Shown one piece after another: positions 1,718-29,705 of a DNA stretch of 37,008 nucleotides (the first letter of the stretch is position 1; each line of letters starts with the position of its first letter). The DNA comes from a candidate division WOR-3 bacterium (GTDB taxonomy: Bacteria; Hydrothermota; UBA3072; B12-G15), in the NCBI GenBank assembly GCA_965649055.1, contig CBFGJG010000018.1:1-37008 (forward strand), in the 5' to 3' direction. The notes under the pieces were generated by a model. It was not told the DNA's origin and did no database searches. It saw only the letters and a list, made by a program, of their open reading frames with translations. The translations under genes and the position numbers were made by a program.

Positions 1718-2635
1718 CTATTTTAACAATCCATTCCTTGAAAAACTGTAAAAATCTTCAACATTCCTACCGATTATTATATGGTCCAAAACCCTTATTC
1801 CTGCAATCTCAAGGATTTCTTTTATTCTATGCGTGAGATTGATATCATCTTCTGATGGTATTGGTTCTCCTGAAGGATGATTGTGTATTAATATTACTGA
1901 TGATGCTGTCTTCAAGGATGCCAACTTTAGTATCTCTTTTGGATCAACTATTGTTCCATAAACAGAACCTTTGCTTATCTCTATCTTATCCAGAATTTTA
2001 TTCTTTATATCAAGAAGGATAACATAGAAAAATTCTTTATCCTCGTCCCTTAAATAAGGATAAAATACATCTTTAACGAACAAAATAACATCCTCGGGTT
2101 TCCTTATCTTTACTTCTTTTTTTAATTCTTCCCGTATAAATCTTCTTCCAATTTCAAATGCAGCCTTAATCTGTGCAATTTTGGCAATTCCAAGTCCTTC
2201 AATCTTCAAAAGTTCTTCAACAGGTGCTTTGTCTATCTCCCTTAAATTCTTATATTTCCCCATTATTTGTGCTGCTAAACCCTGGGCACTCTTTGAACGT
2301 GTTCCTGTCCTTAACAGTATTGAAAGAAGTTGAATATTTGTTAAATTCTCAGCTCCTTCTTGAATAAGTCTTTCCCTTGGTCTTTCTTCTTTAGACCACT
2401 CTTTGATAGGTTTTTTACCTTTACTCTTTCTATTCTGATTTATCTCATCCTTTACCCTTTTTACATCTTCCTCATTTTTTATATTTAAAATATTAATAAT
2501 TTCACTTTCAATACTATCACTTAACAAATTCTTCTTTTTTCCTATAAGATAAATCTTTTTATTTTTGTTTATTGCGGGATATATTGAATTATCTGATAAA
2601 AATTCAATTGTCTCATTGTAATCTTTAAACGCCAT
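1718..2635 (-). CDS. radC: RadC family (JAB/MPN domain) protein with an N-terminal extension
   Basis: ERPRERL, LLRTG, HhH IEGLGIAK, HNHPSG..PSEDD and LDHIII motifs. Confidence 0.93.
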   Translation of the reverse strand: MAFKDYNETIEFLSDNSIYPAINKNKKIYLIGKKKNLLSDSIESEIINILNIKNEEDVKRVKDEINQNRKSKGKKPIKEWSKEERPRERLIQEGAENLTNIQLLSILLRTGTRSKSAQGLAAQIMGKYKNLREIDKAPVEELLKIEGLGIAKIAQIKAAFEIGRRFIREELKKEVKIRKPEDVILFVKDVFYPYLRDEDKEFFYVILLDIKNKILDKIEISKGSVYGTIVDPKEILKLASLKTASSVILIHNHPSGEPIPSEDDINLTHRIKEILEIAGIRVLDHIIIGRNVEDFYSFSRNGLLK

Positions 2636-2641
2636 ATTTTT

Positions 2642-2670
2642 ATTTTAAAAAAACATAGATTCATTGTCAA
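2642..2670 (-). promoter_or_regulatory. Leaderless sigma70-type promoter of radC
   Basis: Minus strand TTGACA-17-TAAAAT, then 6 nt to ATG. Confidence 0.55.
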
Positions 2671-2698
2671 GCAATTAAATTACTCTATATTTTATGTC

Positions 2699-2726
2699 TT
2701 GACAATCTCAATAAGGGAACTATTAT
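2699..2726 (+). promoter_or_regulatory. Sigma70-type promoter of the alpha-2-macroglobulin gene
   Basis: TTGACA-16-TATTAT, followed by an AAGGAGG RBS before ATG 2749. Confidence 0.55.
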
Positions 2727-2748
2727 AAATGGATAAAAAGGAGGAAGT

Positions 2749-5700
2749 ATGCTTATATTCTTTTTATTAAATTTACAGGAATTAAGATTGACTATTCCTG
2801 TGTCAAAAACAGATGGTGATTCTGGAAGTTTAATTGTGAAAGTTTTAGATGAGAATGATAATGTTGTTGGTAATTTTTCAAAATTCGTAAGGATTTCCAA
2901 AGATATAGAATACATAAATTTTAACATCAAGATAAAAGATAGAGATGTTGATCTTTTAAGGGTAAAGGTTTTATTCAACAAAAAGGAGAAGATTTATTCT
3001 GTCTATAAACTTATTGATAAGATGATTGTGAATATCTTAGGACAGGATGAATTTATAAAAGGAACTGATATCAGACACAGGATTATTGTAAAAAATATGA
3101 GAAATGACGCACCTTTAAATAATGCAAATGTCAAAGTTCTTTTAGATGGAAAGATTGTATTTCAGGGTTTCACAAATTCTCAAGGAATAGTTAATTCTTC
3201 ATTTAAGGTTAACGAAAATATAAAAGAAGGTGAATTAAAATTTGAAATATCTTCTATATTCGGGAATGAAACATTCACAAGGAAGATTAAGATTTTTTCA
3301 GGTTATACAACATACCTTATAACAGATAAACCTATCTATCAACCTGAGCAGGTTATACATATTCGTTCATTGACATTAAAAAAACCGGATCTTAAAGCGG
3401 TTTCAGATGAAGAGGTTATTTTTGAAGTAGAAGATAGCAAAGGAAATAAAGTATTCAAAAAAAGAATGAAGACCGATAAATTTGGGGTTGCAAGCACTGA
3501 TTTTACATTGGCAGATGAAGTAAATCTTGGAGATTATACTATCAGGGTAATAATTGGTGATGAAACTGTTGAAAAAACAGTTAAAGTTTCAAGATATGTT
3601 CTTCCAAAATTCAAGGTTGAATTGAAAACCGATAAGGAATATTATCTTCCTGGTGAAGAGCTCGAAGGAACAATAACTGCTGAATACTTCTTTGGGAAGC
3701 CTGTAACAGATGGAAATGTCAAGATTAATGTGTATAAATTTGATATAGGATTTACTTTGATAGAAGAGATAAAAGGAAAACTTGATAAAAATGGCCTATT
3801 TAATTTCAGATACAAACTACCGGATTATTTTGTTGGTGAACCTCTTGATAAAGGTGATGCGTTTGTTCGTTTTGAAGTAGAGGTAGAAGATAATGCAAAA
3901 CATACAGAAAAAATAGATGTAAAAAAGATTATCAAAAGAAACAACATAGATATATATGTGATACCTGAAGGTGGAGAATTTAAAAAGAATCTGCAAAACA
4001 GTTTTTATGTCCTTGTAACATATCCGGATGGAAAACCCTGTCTTTCAAGTGTTTCAGTTTACCTGAAAGACAGAAAATTTGAAAAAAATACAGATTCACT
4101 TGGTATTGCAAAATTCCAGTTCACACCAAAGGAAGACACCCTTGAAATGAGGATTGAAATAAAAGATAAAAAGGGGAATGTTGCCAAGATTCAAAAGAAA
4201 TTCGGAACAGGTAAAGATGAACAGGTTATGATGATTCTTGATAAAGGTGTTTATAAGGTAGGTAATATTCTGAACGTTAGATTCATTTCAACAAAAAAAT
4301 CTGGAAGATTATATTTTGATGTAGTTAAGGATAATCAGACACAACTTTTAAAAACCCTGGATTTGGTTGATGGAAAATCACAGGTTTCTTTAAATCTTAC
4401 AAGTGAACTTTCAGGTTCAATCTGGTTACATTCTTACATTGTAACAAAAGAAGGTTTTATCTTAAGGGATTCAAGGTTTATATTTGTTGAACCACAGAAT
4501 GAATTGAATATAACGATGGATAAAGATAAAAAAGAGTATCTTCCAGGTGAAAATGGTGTGCTAACCTTTAATGTCAGGGACAAAAGAGGTTTACCTGTTA
4601 TTTCTTCACTATGTATTGCAATAGTTGATGAAGCAGTATTTGCAGTATCAGAATTAAGGCCTGGGCTTGAAAAGATTTACTTTTTACTTGAAGAAGAAAT
4701 CCTAAAACCAAGATACGAAATACATAACTTCAAGATGGAAAGAGTAGTTCAGGAAGAGATAAAACCAGAGATTCAGAAGATAATGTTTTCAACACTTTCA
4801 CCGAAAGAACCATTCAAGATAAATTACAGAACAAAAATAGACCTAACAAAATTGAAAGAAACATATATTACAAGGTTGTATCAATTGAACGACAAAATTT
4901 ATACTGCTATAAACAAATATTATGATAAATATAGAGAATATCCAAAATCAAAAGATATTGTCAAAACATTTTTAAAAGAAGGATTCTTGAAGGAAAAAGA
5001 TTTAAAAGACCCGTGGGGAAATAATTACAAGATCTTTAATGAAGATGAATATTTCACATATGTTGGGAATATAATTTCTGCAGGACCTGATGGCATCTTT
5101 GATACTGATGATGATATTAATTTGAACCTTTACGAAAGGGAAAGATTCAAAGAAGAAGGTATTATGATGTTTAAAACTATGGGTGCAATGGAAAAAGAAA
5201 TGATAATCCCGGGGCCTGTTGATAAAATGAGGAATGGTGGGAAAGAAGAACCAAGGATAAGGGAATACTTTCCTGAAACATTCATATTTGAACCTGCTTT
5301 AATAACAGATAAAAATGGCACAGCAAGGATAGAAGTAAAGATGCCTGATGCTATAACAACATGGAGGGTTACTGGATTTGGTTCAACAACCACAGGTAGT
5401 CTTGGTTCTTTCACTTCGAGTATCCGTGTCTTCCAGGATTTCTTCGTTGATATAGACCTCCCAATATACCTAACAGATGGCGATGAGATATCAATACCTG
5501 TTGCCATTTACAATTATCTACCAAGAGAACAGAAGATTAAAATAGTCTTTGAAAAAGATGATTGGTTTGAATTTCTTGAAAACAACATAATAGAAAGAAC
5601 ACTGAAGAAAGATGAGGTTTCTGTTGAATACTTCCCTATAAAGATAAAAAAGATTGGATATTTTCCCCTTCTTGTAAAGGCTTATGGAGAAGTTAAATCA

Positions 5701-7344
5701 GACGCAATTAAAAGATTTATAAGGGTTTTACCTGATGGAAAGAGATTCGAAAATATAATATCCGAAAGACTTACTGGTGATGTAACAAAAAAGATAGTTT
5801 TTCCGAAGGATGCAATAAAAGATGGAAATACATTAATACTAAAAATATATCCCGGAATTTTTTCCCAGGTTGTTGATGGTCTTGATAAGATGTTAAGGAT
5901 GCCTTTTGGCTGTTTTGAACAGACATCTTCTGTTACATACCCGAATATCTTAATCCTAAAATATCTAAGGGATACAAAGCAGATAAAAACTGATATTGAG
6001 ATGAAGGCGGAAGAATATATAAGCATAGGTTATCAGAGACTCATTTCTTATGAAGTAAAATCAGGTGGTTTTTCTTGGTTCGGGAACGAACCTGCAAATA
6101 AAATTTTGACTGCTTATGGTCTTATGGAATTTTTTGATATGAGCAAGGTTTTTGATGTTGATATGAGTGTGATTGAAAGGACCAAAGATTGGCTAAAATC
6201 AAAACAGAATAATGATGGTTCCTGGTCAAAGGATGAAGAATACCTTCATGCTGAATCCTGGGGAAGGATACAGAAAACAAATATCCTACCTACTGCATAC
6301 ATTGTCTGGGCTCTATCTGAAATTGGTGATAAATCAGATGCAGTAAAGAAAGGACTAAATTATATTTATAATAACTTAAAAGATGTAAAAGACCCTTATA
6401 CCTTATCCATCATTGCAAATGCACTTGTTTCAGCAGACCCGAAGAATGAGAAAACAGCTGAAGTCTTGAAAACACTTATATCTCTTGGGAAGGAAAGTAA
6501 GGATGAAATATACTGGGAATCCGAAATGCCAACTATAACATATTCAAAAGGGAATGGCGCTGATATAGAGGCAACAGGACTTGCAATATACGCCTTAATA
6601 AAATCAGGGAAATACGGAAATATAATAACAAAGGGATTAAATTATCTTATAAAAAGCAAGGATACAAATGGTATGTGGTTAACAACACAGGGGACAATTA
6701 TTGCATTGAAATGCTTTGTTGCATCATTGGGGAACAGTGTTGAAGATGCAAATGCAACAATAATTGTAAATCTTAATGGAAAGAAGGTAAAAGAAATAAA
6801 TATCAATAAAGATAATATAGATATTGTTCAGCAGATAAACTTTGATAACATAAAGGAAGAGAACGATGTTGAGATAAAACTAAAAGGGGAAGGTAATTTC
6901 TTATACGAATTAACTTCTTATTATTATATCCCTTGGAAACTAATTCCAAAACCACCTTTACCTTTGTTTGATATAAAGGTAGAATACGATAAGACCGAAC
7001 TTGAAATGAACGACCTCGTTAAGGTGAATGTGAATTGCATATTGAAAAAAGAAGGAAAAGCACAGATGGTTATTATTGACCTTGGAATACCACCTGGTTT
7101 CAGTGTCCTTACACCTTCACTTGATGAGATTGTTGGAAAGAAGATACAGAAATACAATCTTACACCAAGACAGATAATTGTGTATGTGGATGAGATTGAT
7201 TCAAAAAAGCCACTTGAATTCTCTTATATGATGAAGGCAAAATATCCTATTAAAGCAAAAAGCCCAACTTCAAGGGTCTATGAATATTACAATACCGAAC
7301 AGGAATGTATTATCGAACCAGTTGAATTGAAAGTAAGAAAATAG
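2749..7344 (+). CDS. Alpha-2-macroglobulin/thioester-containing protein with an inserted GspG-like domain
   Basis: MG2 signature TDKPIYQP, YVLPKF, REYFPET, MPDAITTW, thioester GCFEQ (5908-5922), GGFSWFG, C-terminal receptor-binding-type YEYY. Confidence 0.93.
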   Translation: MLIFFLLNLQELRLTIPVSKTDGDSGSLIVKVLDENDNVVGNFSKFVRISKDIEYINFNIKIKDRDVDLLRVKVLFNKKEKIYSVYKLIDKMIVNILGQDEFIKGTDIRHRIIVKNMRNDAPLNNANVKVLLDGKIVFQGFTNSQGIVNSSFKVNENIKEGELKFEISSIFGNETFTRKIKIFSGYTTYLITDKPIYQPEQVIHIRSLTLKKPDLKAVSDEEVIFEVEDSKGNKVFKKRMKTDKFGVASTDFTLADEVNLGDYTIRVIIGDETVEKTVKVSRYVLPKFKVELKTDKEYYLPGEELEGTITAEYFFGKPVTDGNVKINVYKFDIGFTLIEEIKGKLDKNGLFNFRYKLPDYFVGEPLDKGDAFVRFEVEVEDNAKHTEKIDVKKIIKRNNIDIYVIPEGGEFKKNLQNSFYVLVTYPDGKPCLSSVSVYLKDRKFEKNTDSLGIAKFQFTPKEDTLEMRIEIKDKKGNVAKIQKKFGTGKDEQVMMILDKGVYKVGNILNVRFISTKKSGRLYFDVVKDNQTQLLKTLDLVDGKSQVSLNLTSELSGSIWLHSYIVTKEGFILRDSRFIFVEPQNELNITMDKDKKEYLPGENGVLTFNVRDKRGLPVISSLCIAIVDEAVFAVSELRPGLEKIYFLLEEEILKPRYEIHNFKMERVVQEEIKPEIQKIMFSTLSPKEPFKINYRTKIDLTKLKETYITRLYQLNDKIYTAINKYYDKYREYPKSKDIVKTFLKEGFLKEKDLKDPWGNNYKIFNEDEYFTYVGNIISAGPDGIFDTDDDINLNLYERERFKEEGIMMFKTMGAMEKEMIIPGPVDKMRNGGKEEPRIREYFPETFIFEPALITDKNGTARIEVKMPDAITTWRVTGFGSTTTGSLGSFTSSIRVFQDFFVDIDLPIYLTDGDEISIPVAIYNYLPREQKIKIVFEKDDWFEFLENNIIERTLKKDEVSVEYFPIKIKKIGYFPLLVKAYGEVKSDAIKRFIRVLPDGKRFENIISERLTGDVTKKIVFPKDAIKDGNTLILKIYPGIFSQVVDGLDKMLRMPFGCFEQTSSVTYPNILILKYLRDTKQIKTDIEMKAEEYISIGYQRLISYEVKSGGFSWFGNEPANKILTAYGLMEFFDMSKVFDVDMSVIERTKDWLKSKQNNDGSWSKDEEYLHAESWGRIQKTNILPTAYIVWALSEIGDKSDAVKKGLNYIYNNLKDVKDPYTLSIIANALVSADPKNEKTAEVLKTLISLGKESKDEIYWESEMPTITYSKGNGADIEATGLAIYALIKSGKYGNIITKGLNYLIKSKDTNGMWLTTQGTIIALKCFVASLGNSVEDANATIIVNLNGKKVKEININKDNIDIVQQINFDNIKEENDVEIKLKGEGNFLYELTSYYYIPWKLIPKPPLPLFDIKVEYDKTELEMNDLVKVNVNCILKKEGKAQMVIIDLGIPPGFSVLTPSLDEIVGKKIQKYNLTPRQIIVYVDEIDSKKPLEFSYMMKAKYPIKAKSPTSRVYEYYNTEQECIIEPVELKVRK

Positions 7345-8292
7345 GGGTCAGCCTTCTCATTTCTCACATATAAATTTATCAAATTCCTTTAATATTTTCT
7401 CTGATTTAGTTGATTTATAAATTCTGTGTGCTGTCTTTAAATTCAAACCTGTTAAATCTTCTATTTCTTTAAATGTCATATGAAGTCTATCTCTTAAAAT
7501 TATTATTGCTTTATCTCTTACTCCTTTATCTTTTATGGGTGAATCAAAAATCCTTTTGAAGTATTCTTCAACATCCTTAACAGTTATTTTATTCCTTGAT
7601 GAACCATTTCCCCTTTTCTGTAAGCCTATTTTTTCCAAAACACTATTGACAAAATTATCATCACCATAAAATGATATAGCACCATACCTTTTTGATACCA
7701 AATTTTCTTTTAACTCTATCATTTCATCGGAAAATATTTGATTACCGAATTCATTTATCAACACCTCATAATCTAAAATACCTCTATCTTTAGAATTATA
7801 TTCAATATAACTGCTCCATAAATATTCTCTTGGATTTTTACATATTCCTGCCTTGACAGGATTTAAATGGATATATCTAATCAGTGTCACCAGATAATTA
7901 TCTTTATCAACCAGAATACTTTTATACCTGTCTTGTAATAGATGACCTACCAGACCCCATCTCTTATTAAAATACTGAACATAATTAGTAAGTAGTTGCG
8001 CCATAAATCTGCTTATATGAATTTCTCCTGATTCAACAAGAAGATGACAATGATTCTTCATCAGACAATAGGCATATATCCTGATCTTCTTTTTTTCTTT
8101 ATTTCTTTTCAACAATTCAAGAAATTTTAAATAATCCTTTTTATCTCTAAATATTGCTTGCTTTCTATTACCTCTGAATATTATATGATGTATTGCACCA
8201 GGATAATCTACCCTTAATGGCCTTGCCATAATTTTATTATAATAATTTTCATATAAAAATCAAGAAATATGAGAAATGAGAAGGCTGACCCC
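7344..8292. mobile_element. TIR-flanked Y1/HUH transposase element (TIRtron-like)
   Basis: Perfect 23-bp inverted repeats GGGGTCAGCCTTCTCATTTCTCA at 7344-7366 and 8270-8292 enclose a single transposase gene. Confidence 0.85.
7357..8229 (-). CDS. REP-associated tyrosine transposase-like (Y1_Tnp, HUH) protein with a C-terminal HTH
   Basis: MARPLR..YPGA.HH...RGN, AYCLMKNHCHLL (HUH), catalytic YIHLNPVKAG, WSSY, and HTH-like MTFKEIEDLTGLNLKTAHRIY. Confidence 0.92.
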   Translation of the reverse strand: MARPLRVDYPGAIHHIIFRGNRKQAIFRDKKDYLKFLELLKRNKEKKKIRIYAYCLMKNHCHLLVESGEIHISRFMAQLLTNYVQYFNKRWGLVGHLLQDRYKSILVDKDNYLVTLIRYIHLNPVKAGICKNPREYLWSSYIEYNSKDRGILDYEVLINEFGNQIFSDEMIELKENLVSKRYGAISFYGDDNFVNSVLEKIGLQKRGNGSSRNKITVKDVEEYFKRIFDSPIKDKGVRDKAIIILRDRLHMTFKEIEDLTGLNLKTAHRIYKSTKSEKILKEFDKFICEK

Positions 8293-26391: not shown

Positions 26392-27724
26392 AATTACTCC
26401 TTTTTTTATAATCCTTTAAAAATTTTATAGCTTCTTTCTTGTTCTTTACAATACCTTCAATATAGGCTGCCTGAGCAATTCTTATTAATCTCCCGATCTC
26501 CGGTCCTTCTTTCAATTTAAGATGTTTAATAATATCTCTTCCCATAATCACTGGTTTTATCTGTTTTCTCTTTGTATAATAATAATTCAATATTTTTTCA
26601 GATGTTTCCAGAACTCTTTTAATATTTTCTCCTCCTGAAGCCATCTCGTCAGCAAATGTAAAAAGTATCAAGCCTATAATATCCTCTCCCATCTTAAAAA
26701 TTATTCTTCTAATTGCCTTCTCGGTGATTTGAGTTGCTGATAGAAGATGTAACCACATATGATTTTTTAATATGTTATATATATAATCAATTTCTCTATT
26801 AGAAAATCTCAAAGCCTTTCCAGTCCTTTTAAACCATTCTGCTGCTTCCTTATCATGTCCGTAGAAATGTATTTTATCATCAATAATCATTGTATCCGGT
26901 TTCTTTATATCGTGTAATAATGTTGCAATTCTTAAAAGGTAAACCTTGTCTTTGACATATCTTTTTATATGTTTCCTGAAATTTTTTAACAATTCTTCAT
27001 CTTTTATTATATTCTCAAGATATTTCAGGGAAAAAATAGAATGCTCAAGCAATGAATACTCTGAGTTTATAGAACCTTTAATCTCTTTCATTTTTAAGAA
27101 CCCGGGGAAAATAATATCATAAATTTCTGGTATTATAGATTTATACGAGTCAGAAGATGAAAAAATAAAAACAAGTTCCTGATGTATCCTCTCAGGTGCT
27201 GAATTTTTAATAAGATTTGCATATTCTTTAAATATTTTCAATGTATTATCTTCTATTGTAAAGCCAAGTTCACACATCATTCTTAAACCACGTAGAATCC
27301 TTACAGGGTCTTCTTTTATATTCTCTGCTGAGTTAGCCTTTATGATTCCTGATTTTAAATCCCTGATACCATCAAACGGATCAAAAAAATCAAGACTTTT
27401 TATATTCATAGCCATACTATTTATTGTGAAATCCCTTCTTTTCAAATCATAAATAATATCTTTTTCAAGACCAAGAACATCAATTATTCCTCCGTTAACA
27501 ATAACACGCCATTCATCAAATTCTTCCTTTAATTTAAAAGGATTCCCGAATAAAGAAGCAAATTTTTTAGCATCTCCATAAACAGCAATATCAAGATCCC
27601 TTGATTTCCTACCTAATAAAAAATCTCTGAGATAACCACCTACAATAAATATCTCGTATTCCTTAATTTCTTTTAATTTCTGAATTATCCCGTCCCTATA
27701 AATTCTATCAAATCGAAATATCAA
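26384..27724 (-). CDS. cca: Class II tRNA nucleotidyltransferase with HD domain (probably CC-adding)
   Basis: VGGYLRD..L...DLD, DLKRRDFTINSMA, EDPVRILR, ERI, LLHD. Confidence 0.85.
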   Translation of the reverse strand: MIFRFDRIYRDGIIQKLKEIKEYEIFIVGGYLRDFLLGRKSRDLDIAVYGDAKKFASLFGNPFKLKEEFDEWRVIVNGGIIDVLGLEKDIIYDLKRRDFTINSMAMNIKSLDFFDPFDGIRDLKSGIIKANSAENIKEDPVRILRGLRMMCELGFTIEDNTLKIFKEYANLIKNSAPERIHQELVFIFSSSDSYKSIIPEIYDIIFPGFLKMKEIKGSINSEYSLLEHSIFSLKYLENIIKDEELLKNFRKHIKRYVKDKVYLLRIATLLHDIKKPDTMIIDDKIHFYGHDKEAAEWFKRTGKALRFSNREIDYIYNILKNHMWLHLLSATQITEKAIRRIIFKMGEDIIGLILFTFADEMASGGENIKRVLETSEKILNYYYTKRKQIKPVIMGRDIIKHLKLKEGPEIGRLIRIAQAAYIEGIVKNKKEAIKFLKDYKKRSNYE

Positions 27725-29705
27725 CTTTTTCTCCGTGTTTTTCGTATTTTCTACCGCAAGAGCAGATGGCCTTATTATTTTTGAAATTCAGTTTATTACC
27801 GCAGACACATATGTATCCACATTTTTTAGCAGGATTACCACAAACAATTGTATATGCAGGAACATCTTTTGTTACAACACTTCCAGCACCAATCATTGCC
27901 CATTTTCCTATTTTTAAATCACAAAGGATTGTTGAATTTGCACCAATAGTAGCACCTTCCTCAACTATTGTCTTTAACCATTCTTTATGTTTTGGGTAAG
28001 GAGCCCTTGGATATTTATTATGCATAAAAGTTACTTCGGGTCCTATGAAACAATTATCACCAATCTCAACCATTGTGTATATATTTACACCATTCTGTAT
28101 CTTCACATTATTACCAACTTTTGCATTTTTACCAATAAAAACATTCTGTCCTATATTACAATTTTTACCCACATTACCCATAATATGTGAAAAATGCCAG
28201 ATCTTTGTCCCTTCACCTATATTCGCATATTTTTCAACGATTGCTGTTTTATGCTTGAAATATCTTCTTCTTGAACTAATGATTATTGTAAAAACCACAA
28301 CTGATAAAAACAGCCAACCGAAAAAATCACCAATGACTGTATATATAGTTTTCCTATCGTATACAGACACATTGTTTTTTATTATATCACTTTCAAATAA
28401 TTTAGTTTTTCTAACTATTTTTCCTGTTGGGTCTATGTATGCACTAATTCCAGAGTTTGCACACCTTAAAACTGGTTTTTTATATTCAACAGCCCTTAAG
28501 ATAGAATTCTCAAAATGCTGATATGGGCCAAGTGTTCTACCAAACCAGGCATCTTCAGTAATATTTATCACCAAATCTGCACCCATTCTTACGAATCTTC
28601 TAACAAGCCTTGGGAATATCTGTTCGAAACATATAAGTGCGCAGAATTTAATATCTTTTATCTCAAATATTGTATAAGATTTTCCGGGATTAAAAGAACC
28701 CTGACCGAATTCTATTTTGTTCAAAACAGGAAGGACGTCGTTATAAGGCAATCTTTCAACAAACGGAACAAGATATTTTTTTCTATGGACACCTTTAAGA
28801 ATCCCATCATAAAATAGAGCAGCGGAATTGTAATATTTAAATCTTTGACCTCTTTCAAACTCAATTGTTCCAACAAGTATTCCTGCATTAAGAGAATCAG
28901 AAATATTCTTAAATATCTGTGAACAACTTTCATAGTTTATAGCGTTACAGGGAGATGATGATTCAGGAAGTATATATAATTCCGAACCTTCTTTTACCAT
29001 TTCTTTAATCGTATTAAGCCTTGTTTCATATTCATTGTATCTTTTGTCGTCAGGAGAAATATTTAATTGTATAATCTCAGCAGAAATTCCCCTATCAGAG
29101 CTTTTCAAGGTAACAATATCAACTATAGAGTATAAAAAGAGGAAAATAAATATAGAAACTATAATGAAACCATATTTAAATTTTTTCTCTTTTATCAATC
29201 TGTAAATCAAATAATTTATTAAGACAATTATAAAAGTAAGCATAGGAACACCTCCTATATCAGCAATTTGTATTAAGAATCTGTAATATGATTGTGTATA
29301 TGCAAGACTTCCCCATGGGAAACCAAATGAACTTGAGAGAGACCTGAAGAATTCTAATCCAGAAAAAACAAATGGTAAAATAATTTTATATTTAGTCTTT
29401 TTGTAAAGATAAAATGTCAGGCCAAAATAAGAAGAAAGATAAGCAATCATAAGAAAGAAACCAAGGACAACCCATGGTCTTGTTTCACTTTCAACATTTG
29501 AAAATGGCACCCAATATAAATGAAGAATATAAAAAAATAAACCAAAAAGGTAACCTGTTAAAAAAGGTTTTTTATCATCTTCTATAGAAATTAAAATCGG
29601 AATAAAAGAAAAATATGCAAGAAAACCAAAAGAGAAAGAACCTATTTTTAGAAATGAGATAAATAAAATTATAGAGGAAAGAAGTATTGGTAATATCCTC
29701 TTCAA
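27708..29705 (-). CDS. lnt: Apolipoprotein N-acyltransferase fused to a hexapeptide-repeat (WbpD-like) acetyltransferase
   Basis: GFPW, catalytic triad LPE / K..LVPF.E / ICFEQ, DAWFG, RAVE; C-terminal IGEGTKIWHFSH...GATIGANSTI...GNPA and a CxC..CxC tail. Confidence 0.9.
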   Translation of the reverse strand: MKRILPILLSSIILFISFLKIGSFSFGFLAYFSFIPILISIEDDKKPFLTGYLFGLFFYILHLYWVPFSNVESETRPWVVLGFFLMIAYLSSYFGLTFYLYKKTKYKIILPFVFSGLEFFRSLSSSFGFPWGSLAYTQSYYRFLIQIADIGGVPMLTFIIVLINYLIYRLIKEKKFKYGFIIVSIFIFLFLYSIVDIVTLKSSDRGISAEIIQLNISPDDKRYNEYETRLNTIKEMVKEGSELYILPESSSPCNAINYESCSQIFKNISDSLNAGILVGTIEFERGQRFKYYNSAALFYDGILKGVHRKKYLVPFVERLPYNDVLPVLNKIEFGQGSFNPGKSYTIFEIKDIKFCALICFEQIFPRLVRRFVRMGADLVINITEDAWFGRTLGPYQHFENSILRAVEYKKPVLRCANSGISAYIDPTGKIVRKTKLFESDIIKNNVSVYDRKTIYTVIGDFFGWLFLSVVVFTIIISSRRRYFKHKTAIVEKYANIGEGTKIWHFSHIMGNVGKNCNIGQNVFIGKNAKVGNNVKIQNGVNIYTMVEIGDNCFIGPEVTFMHNKYPRAPYPKHKEWLKTIVEEGATIGANSTILCDLKIGKWAMIGAGSVVTKDVPAYTIVCGNPAKKCGYICVCGNKLNFKNNKAICSCGRKYEKHGEKVDISI

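Follow-up and report, generated by a model that had tools for sequence, protein, structure and literature searches.

A GspG-type pseudopilin head ahead of the bait region in a widespread family of CD109/A2ML1/TEP1-like bacterial thioester proteins

Introduction

Proteins of the thioester superfamily capture their targets by a cleave-and-trap mechanism, in which bait cleavage is followed by plug retraction and covalent capture. In the available sections of the structural literature, plug retraction after bait cleavage is described as the trigger in A2ML1, A2M and C3 (PMC9156758, PMC9352918), with the A2ML1 stretch Arg730-Pro734 threading the central channel (PMC9156758). Bacterial macroglobulins, so far as the accessible parts of the literature go, fall into two classes, which are set apart from the animal proteins by structure and supposed to have come from animal hosts: Class I, with a lipobox signal peptide and an adjacent pbpC gene, and Class II (MagD/YfaS type), without a thioester cysteine and encoded in a six-gene operon (both from the available part of PMC3735191). 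Neither class fits the protein described here, which has no lipobox or pbpC, an intact thioester and a gene that stands alone. Its 1531-residue gene (2749..7344) lies in a 37,008-nucleotide stretch of DNA (the window; contig CBFGJG010000018.1 of assembly GCA_965649055.1) from a candidate division WOR-3 bacterium, phylum Hydrothermota, and encodes a CD109/A2ML1/TEP1-like thioester protein with the head of a GspG-type pseudopilin directly before its bait. Coordinates are on the forward strand unless marked (-).

An original prediction, made from the letters of this stretch, had placed a GspG-like head beside the bait region of a thioester alpha-2-macroglobulin, read it as a pilin mimic serving as a decoy or as a dock on a type II secretion system (T2SS), and named a Pfam scan, an AlphaFold model and a survey of phylogenetic distribution as checks; the animal-type CD109/A2ML1/TEP1 scaffold had not been recognised.

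The pseudopilin head

The motifs on which the prediction was built, TAINKYYDKYREYP, LKDPWGNNY and IISAGPDGIFDTDDDI, followed by a Met-rich stretch and then REYFPET, are all in frame in the open reading frame (ORF) 2749-7344. Pfam T2SSG matches residues 695-788 (nt 4831-5112) with 22.4 bits in the whole protein (cut-off 21) and the isolated segment with 27.3 bits (E 3.9e-6). The isolated segment gave 11 matches to PDB sequences at E up to 10, the best eight being GspG/PulG/EpsG-type chains (best E 8.9e-7), and a profile of 13 orthologue sequences gave eight matches below E 0.001, all GspG chains (best E 2.4e-10); the match of the head to GspG is well beyond chance. The segment earlier assigned to 4860..5270 is real, its start having been set some 30 nucleotides too late: a GspG-type head without the hydrophobic N-terminal helix spans 4831..5118 (residues 695-790) and comprises a long helix (699-728), the YP and DPW motifs, two strands and a calcium-binding loop. 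A chance motif or an assembly chimera was rejected, as the region aligns with 119 further proteins (best 78%) and the motifs are invariant, and so was a one-off insertion in the window genome, the layout being found in other genomes and proteins.

The predicted calcium-binding loop (5077..5118), also named in the original prediction, aligns gap-free with that of GspG, placing D781, T786, D788 and D789 in register with D117, S/T122, D124 and D125, the calcium ligands of PulG and OutG in the available part of PMC13081927; the head would bind calcium through this loop. Residues D754, P755, W756, G779, D781, D788 and D789 are invariant in 120/120 best homologues (the best of 2403 found among 8000 scored). 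The invariant residues are those common to free pseudopilins, that is, the fold core and the calcium loop, and mean pairwise identity is 0.47 over the head, 0.46 over MG1, 0.49 over MG4 and 0.62-0.70 over the core domains.

An AlphaFold2 model of residues 283-1482, built with 108 sequences, predicts the head to be folded in context, with a predicted local distance difference test (pLDDT) of 82-91, after a low-confidence hinge at residues 687-697 and directly before a disordered segment (pLDDT below 50), so that its predicted place beside the bait holds in the sequence. A single-sequence model of the head was of low confidence (pLDDT 60); with it, Foldseek gave no match below E 0.001, its weak top rows being pilins, and a wide fold search was also weak and topped by pilins (Z 5.2-5.5). 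A complex prediction of the head (residues 696-800) with MG3 and MG7-MG8 scored 0.00, which is evidence neither way, and an atlas search with the head alone gave no usable match.

As a pilin the head is incomplete. The class III signal peptide, the hydrophobic N-terminal helix and the prepilin cleavage site are absent, and TIGR01710 aligns over its model positions 39-130 only, at 16.4 bits against a cut-off of 88.85. The loop from YP to DPW is about 12 residues shorter than in true pseudopilins, where it sets secretion specificity according to the accessible part of PMC13081927. The nearest short proteins are largely prepilin-type and GspG-like (40 matches among 289 candidates).

Distribution and copy number

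The layout is found in 13 of the 121 genomes of the window's phylum, which carry an orthologue at 53% identity or more, each genome's sole T2SSG match lying in a frame of 1535-1667 residues, and in many other phyla; named close homologues are mostly from WOR-3. Searching 1.84 billion representatives with the head profile gave 2327 matches with E-values of 0.001 or less, and macroglobulin segments were found in 119 of the 147 new proteins among the best 150 matches, a ranking that favours many-copy proteins because it sums scores. Ninety-two of these proteins retain both borders of the region between the MG5/LNK part and MG6b (hereafter the slot), with one head copy in 3, two in 1, three in 52 and four in 36; in all 92 every copy lies within the slot, with none outside it and no membrane helix inside it. 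The head-in-macroglobulin layout is widespread, with one to four copies per protein. Many of the best 150 proteins add a CarboxypepD_reg beta-sandwich before the bait, and in one (P0122) the head copies lack the long helix. The other 28 of the 147 include fragments and unrelated proteins, and the 16 scanned include small secreted proteins with three heads and fusions to Kelch or leucine-rich repeat domains; P0151, P0162 and P0175, of about 275 residues, contain nothing but three GspG-like heads in tandem and lack a pilin N-terminus.

A genome scan, from which the best 80 of at least 503 loci were kept (the wider loci), returned Acidobacteriota, Armatimonadota, Planctomycetota, Chloroflexota, Verrucomicrobiota, Hydrogenedentota and others. 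One carrier in culture is Chthonomonas calidirosea (L026). Some macroglobulin match is present in 47 of the 121 genomes of the window's phylum. One paralogue (L096:4603-7740, on G093:C29; 36% identity) occupies a 1046-residue frame behind a 559-residue frame, its slot holding a divergent head (DPFG) and a beta-sandwich in the manner of Acidobacteriota, and no head was detected in five further same-phylum macroglobulins (L097, L098, L099, L100, L101), whose thioester motif reads GCVEQ or GCLEQ or is missing.

The thioester scaffold

Pfam domains follow in the order MG2, MG3, MG4, A2M_BRD, T2SSG, A2M, TED_complement and A2M_recep, and Pfam, the model and the fold searches together place the MG domains, LNK, a cleavable region, CUB, TED and MG8, all present in order. 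The LNK linker (4654..4830, residues 636-694; borders set from the Pfam and model layout) follows the first half of MG6, and the MG8/A2M_recep domain (E 2.4e-15) lies at 7057..7311. Within the thioester domain (5860..6714, residues 1038-1322; TED_complement E 1.7e-49) the GCFEQ motif at residues 1054-1058 is intact, as had been predicted, and C1055-F-E-Q1058 (5911..5922) recurs in 117 of 120 homologue rows, the other three being gaps. The triplet H1167-x-E1169 (6247..6255) aligns with the His-x-Glu/Asp of CD109 and TEP1, its histidine, at what we take to be the catalytic position of thioester proteins, being kept in 117 of 120 rows with three gaps. Such a histidine lets the thioesters of A2ML1, C3 and C4B react with hydroxyls, according to the available part of PMC9156758. 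Beyond the close homologues the histidine is far from universal, a crude pattern picking it up in just 22 of the 80 wider loci and in 4 of 92 representatives that bear a thioester.

Searched against PDB sequences, the whole protein matched CD109 (E 6.7e-76), A2ML1 (1.4e-61), TEP1 (6.5e-57) and C3 (2.9e-41), with A2M also matched; E. coli YfhM was outside the best 60 of 74 matches and appeared, at E 3e-5, in a search with part of the thioester domain by itself. Whole-protein fold searches gave Z 30-37 for animal chains against 22 (21.7-22.1) for Salmonella and E. coli chains, and the top Foldseek rows were CD109/A2ML1/TEP1-type chains too; these searches say nothing on the head, because one large domain fills the lists. 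No bMG Pfam model matched at E up to 1, the animal-type MG3, MG4 and A2M_recep being found instead, and NCBIfam offers no model of the full-length protein at an E-value of 0.01 or less. The scaffold is more like animal CD109/A2ML1/TEP1 than E. coli YfhM, a closeness measured by search scores only, because the tree given below held no animal or YfhM-type sequence.

Bait, plug and proposed function

After the head come a short helix and a disordered, variable bait rich in Met, Ala, Glu, Gly and Pro (5119..5247, residues 791-833, from model and conservation), with pLDDT below 50 at residues 805-831. The bait is the least conserved segment of the 120-row alignment (0.43), is 43-69 residues long in 119 homologues, and contains 7.2% Met against 2.0% overall. 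The R-E-Y-F-P plug (5260..5274, residues 838-842) matches A2ML1 Arg730-Pro734, with R838 (nt 5260), F841 and P842 invariant in 120/120 rows. The head, between LNK and the disordered bait, sits at the C3 anaphylatoxin position; in complement proteins the anaphylatoxin domain lies at this same position, ahead of the plug (PMC9156758, PMC9352918, available sections). Three loci with an ECF sigma gene upstream (ECF, extracytoplasmic function) have very long low-complexity baits after a single divergent head (L044:7852-9012, L060:7888-9105, L070:7825-8802), their slots being 325-405 residues long.

The reading that we favour, to which we give an even chance, is that of a protease trap in which the bait is preceded by a calcium-stabilised stopper and spacer, at the anaphylatoxin position; the stopper role, like export and calcium binding, is what we infer. 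The protein would be a secreted, monomeric trap of the A2ML1/CD109 type. A protease would cut the floppy bait (about residues 805-833), whereupon the R-x-[YF]-F-P plug would leave the central channel and expose the thioester, which would bond the protease or a nearby surface; His1167 should let it react with hydroxyls in addition to amines. Rather than working as a pilin, the head would have been co-opted as a folded block, stabilised by calcium, that stands at the N-terminal end of the bait, holds the bait out and stops the plug from leaving its channel before cleavage.

Pilus and GspG genes of the carriers

No GspG scored over the TIGR01710 cut-off in the window genome (93.8% complete) or in any of the 13 other same-phylum carriers of the protein or its paralogue, these 14 genomes being 87-99% complete, and the sole PF08334 match in the window genome is the macroglobulin gene itself. 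GspG exceeds the cut-off in four of five carrier genomes of other phyla. The window genome does encode pilins, with three secretin matches and nine T2SSE-family ATPases over cut-off (PilB/PilT-type ATPases included).

These counts bear on both functions offered by the original prediction. Decoy and T2SS docking are weakly supported, because no GspG was found in 14 carriers and invariance is confined to the residues of the fold and the calcium loop; the specificity loop, moreover, is shorter, and relatives carry three or four heads or have membrane helices instead. As a decoy, the head would mimic a pilin and draw pilus-binding or pilus-processing proteins of phages or predators to the side of the bait, where they would be trapped. 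The fold is that of a true pseudopilin head, its surface is variable as it might be under decoy pressure, and tandem copies would add avidity. Same-phylum carriers, however, have no cognate filament to imitate (0/14 with GspG), T2SS pseudopili are periplasmic according to the available part of PMC13081927, and pilin-processing enzymes would be left without a substrate by the missing cleavage site and hydrophobic helix; binding alone, moreover, would not fire the trap, for which bait cleavage is needed, and no defence-island context was seen at the window gene, at 12 same-phylum loci or at the 80 wider loci. We consider a decoy role very unlikely. Docking on the cell's own type II pseudopilus, as a cargo signal or a co-assembled subunit, is barely credible to us: the closest free relatives are prepilin-type GspG-like proteins and most of the other-phylum carriers have GspG, but the same-phylum carriers do not, and the head lacks the hydrophobic helix required for assembly.

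What else fills the slot

Ten of the 80 wider loci were dropped as cut or split, and the slots of the remaining 70 hold a head in 58 (57 by profile, one by motif), one to seven predicted membrane helices in 12, and both in none. The 12 helix-type loci comprise seven from Chloroflexota (5-7 helices), three from Planctomycetota (1-2), one from Verrucomicrobiota and one titled Rickettsiales. In the Chloroflexota loci (L029, L031, L035, L048, L050, L068, L078) the 5-7 predicted helices replace the head in a slot of about 260-290 residues and match no Pfam family over cut-off; these members are predicted to be integral-membrane thioester proteins.

Some slot helices resemble pilin N-termini. In L084 and L094 the last slot helix matches the start of pilin-like DUF1559 over cut-off, and a profile of 27 prepilin helices gave 16.5 bits for L092 and 14.8 for L084, with no score for L094, L064 and the other eight; in the window genome the same profile gave 15.0-28.7 bits for its best four ORFs, all pilin-like, and 10.9 for the next. 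In L084, L094 and L092 the pilin-N-terminal-like last helix leads straight into the bait. The slot membrane-helix regions of these loci and of L064 are L084:7828-8340, L094:7774-8301, L092:7879-8892 and L064:7789-8235.

A tree of 102 C-terminal core sequences, built by a quick method and without a root from 66 of the 80 wider loci together with 17 proteins of the single-copy clade and 19 of the tandem clade, has the head on both sides of its deepest split and the membrane forms clustered in two groups that need two changes. Because the membrane forms make two groups, the exclusivity of head and helix represents about two events, not 12, and because the tree is unrooted, gain and loss of either form cannot be told apart. 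An ancestral cassette of membrane and pilin parts that lost one or the other would account for both forms; no member with both was seen.

Slots filled by several heads or by membrane anchors speak for a structural or tethering role rather than for a pilus decoy. This pattern invites a tethering or targeting role, in which the head or head array would bind a cell-surface structure non-covalently (the cell's own type IV pili, an envelope protein or a polysaccharide), doing the job of the slot helices, while the trap guards or tags that surface. The alternation of head and helices among the 70 loci, the pilin-like end of the last helix, the absence of a lipobox from head-type members, and the pilins, secretins and PilB/PilT-type ATPases of the window genome all fit, as does the presence of type IV pilins in these genomes. 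Against it stand the small number of independent events behind the alternation, the absence of any binding partner among our results, and the want of a recurrent pilus-gene neighbour in 12 same-phylum loci or the 80 wider ones; we rate it as rather unlikely.

Sigma-factor and anti-sigma links

Sigma-factor genes are the only recurrent true neighbours among the 80 wider loci, where most large neighbour clusters are shadow frames over the macroglobulin gene itself. They lie close upstream in 17 of the 80 loci, as 11 pairs of a sigma-like and a zinc-finger anti-sigma-like gene and six ECF-type genes; all six of the latter were confirmed by Pfam, and in three scanned pairs Sigma70_r4 was found in 3/3 and zf-HC2 in 2/3. 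The upstream pairs are from Acidobacteriota, a sigma-like gene with a zinc-finger/CarboxypepD_reg gene at about 2600-5500 (L052, L053, L057, L073, L075, L080, L083, L089, L091, L093, L095). In four proteins (L064, L084, L094, P0122) the thioester protein itself starts with an anti-sigma-type zinc finger, for which Pfam zf-HC2 is over cut-off in P0122 alone, under it in L064 and L084, and represented by the motif only in L094. The coordinates for the finger-bearing proteins are L064:4264-6303, L084:5103-6309 and L094:5104-6306, with an ECF-type sigma gene directly upstream in all three.

Such links raise the prospect of a sensor that reports proteolytic attack, in which cleavage would release the head, much as C3a is released, or would free an ECF sigma factor in relatives bound to the membrane. 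The upstream sigma genes, the N-terminal zinc fingers and the low-confidence hinge before the head are all consistent with it. The window gene and its 12 same-phylum orthologues, however, have neither a sigma or anti-sigma neighbour nor a zinc finger, no conserved second cleavage site lies ahead of the head, only one finger passes its cut-off, and the sigma linkage may mean just that the gene is an ECF target; we think a sensor role highly improbable.

Weighing the stopper

The stopper is favoured by the position of every copy within the slot, by the predicted folded head before a disordered bait, by the invariant plug, by the restriction of invariance to residues common to free pseudopilins, by a mean identity like that of the peripheral MG domains and by the shortened specificity loop. 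It is favoured too by what the slot accepts (one to four copies, a beta-sandwich, helix-less copies or membrane helices), by the recurrence of the same head as a repeat in small secreted proteins and in other fusions without a pilin N-terminus, and by its retention in carriers that yielded no GspG. Several other observations weigh against it. A folded block is not needed in principle, because A2M, A2ML1 and CD109 work without one before the bait, and three or four head copies exceed what a stopper requires, which suggests avidity or reach. WOR-3-type heads keep the helix residues R714, Y718, N722 and Y725 (85-97 of 120 rows), which are absent from free pseudopilins and may form a binding face. 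Two distinct pilin-derived elements, the head and the membrane helix, in the same slot hint at a link to pilus biology, and the domain arrangement of the large model is uncertain (predicted template modelling score 0.60; root-mean-square deviation above 24 Å to whole solved chains).

Gene, locus and export signal

The macroglobulin gene is preceded by AGGAGG (2739-2744, ahead of the 2749 start) and by a candidate sigma-70-like promoter, TTGACA-16-TATTAT (2699..2726), matching 11 of 12 consensus positions; a second such consensus, divergent on the (-) strand upstream of the macroglobulin gene, would serve the radC-like gene. The consensus search found seven promoter-like sites against 1.9 in shuffles. 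The RadC-like gene (1718-2635, -) diverges from the promoter region that it has in common with the macroglobulin gene, and downstream an IS200-like transposase gene (7357-8229, -) ends 13 bases past the macroglobulin stop, followed by rtcB. As the original prediction had it, pbpC is not next to the window gene and no lipobox-like motif occurs in any of 112 full-length homologues, the window protein included; no gsp gene was seen in the window. Inspection of N-termini by eye at 12 loci of the same phylum brought out no recurrent neighbour, conserved operon or pilus-gene linkage, and operon or pilus linkage was likewise absent from the 80 wider loci.

The protein is probably secreted, judging from an ultrashort hydrophobic N-terminus (2749..2775), a probable lineage-type signal peptide without a lipobox cysteine. 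The two closest homologues have the same form and more distant ones have ordinary signal peptides. In the window genome 47 of 1003 long ORFs begin with Met and 5-8 apolar residues without a basic region (e.g. C18:2749, C11, C13, C20, C27); the ultrashort N-terminus is possibly a lineage-specific minimal signal peptide. Elsewhere in the window, a 665-residue ORF (27708-29705, -) combines motifs of apolipoprotein N-acyltransferase (Lnt) and a hexapeptide-repeat acyltransferase, as a putative fusion or frameshift, and adjoins UDP-sugar dehydrogenase and Gfo/Idh/MocA genes.

Novelty and significance

No paper on the head-in-macroglobulin layout was found in the literature searched, which left out most subscription papers, and the available parts of two 2026 reviews (PMC13069473, PMC12939704) mention only E. 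coli-type bacterial macroglobulins. Public databases already label such proteins T2SSG, and some are named 'GspG', which is explained by the pseudopilin head that they carry. We regard the family as a conserved, real variant of the thioester superfamily, apparently undescribed, though its layout is visible in public annotations. By search scores it is closer to the animal proteins, it extends across many free-living phyla, and it carries a folded domain at the C3 anaphylatoxin position; it offers a handle on the origin of animal thioester proteins and on the effect that a folded block before the bait has on the trigger, and shows the pseudopilin head employed as a freestanding repeat unit.

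A bolder reading, which we hold to be unlikely and put forward with considerable doubt, would make these proteins a third thioester class of environmental bacteria, built like CD109 and C3 rather than YfhM, with a swappable pilin-derived module at the anaphylatoxin position (a surface-targeting head array, or a membrane hairpin whose last part is a pilin helix). In some members, fusion to an anti-sigma zinc finger would let proteolytic attack trigger an ECF response as well as covalent tagging of the attacker, making up a small complement-like system of sensing and tagging, possibly near the ancestor of the animal family.

Comparison with known systems

Among described proteins, CD109 (PDB 8s3o, 9fx2), A2ML1 (7q1y) and Anopheles TEP1 (2pn5) are the best matches in sequence and fold (Z 31-37), and have in common with the window protein the MG ring, LNK, bait, plug, CUB-TED, MG8 and a thioester histidine at an aligned position. 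Unlike them, the window protein has a folded pseudopilin head before the bait, an additional domain of some 80 residues at its N-terminus and GCFEQ in place of GCGEQ; it has no glycosylphosphatidylinositol tail and, because it contains only two cysteines, no disulfide frame. With complement C3 and C4 it shares a folded domain between LNK and the channel plug, and its thioester is putatively of the His type, whereas its domain is a pilin head instead of an anaphylatoxin and a long disordered bait is kept; anaphylatoxin and C345C gave no Pfam match at E up to 1, MG8 is the last domain of the protein, and a tetra-basic processing site is lacking.

Like Class I bacterial A2M (E. coli YfhM/ECAM, Salmonella SaA2M), the window protein is bacterial and has a thioester motif, a bait and the A2M fold, but its match to the YfhM class is much weaker, lipobox and adjacent pbpC are absent, and its Pfam domains are of the animal type. 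The head itself follows GspG, PulG and OutG (PDB 1t92, 5wda, 3g20) in its helix, YP, DPW, two strands and calcium loop in register, and departs from them in lacking the class III signal peptide and hydrophobic helix, in its shorter YP-DPW loop, and in its place inside a 1531-residue protein.

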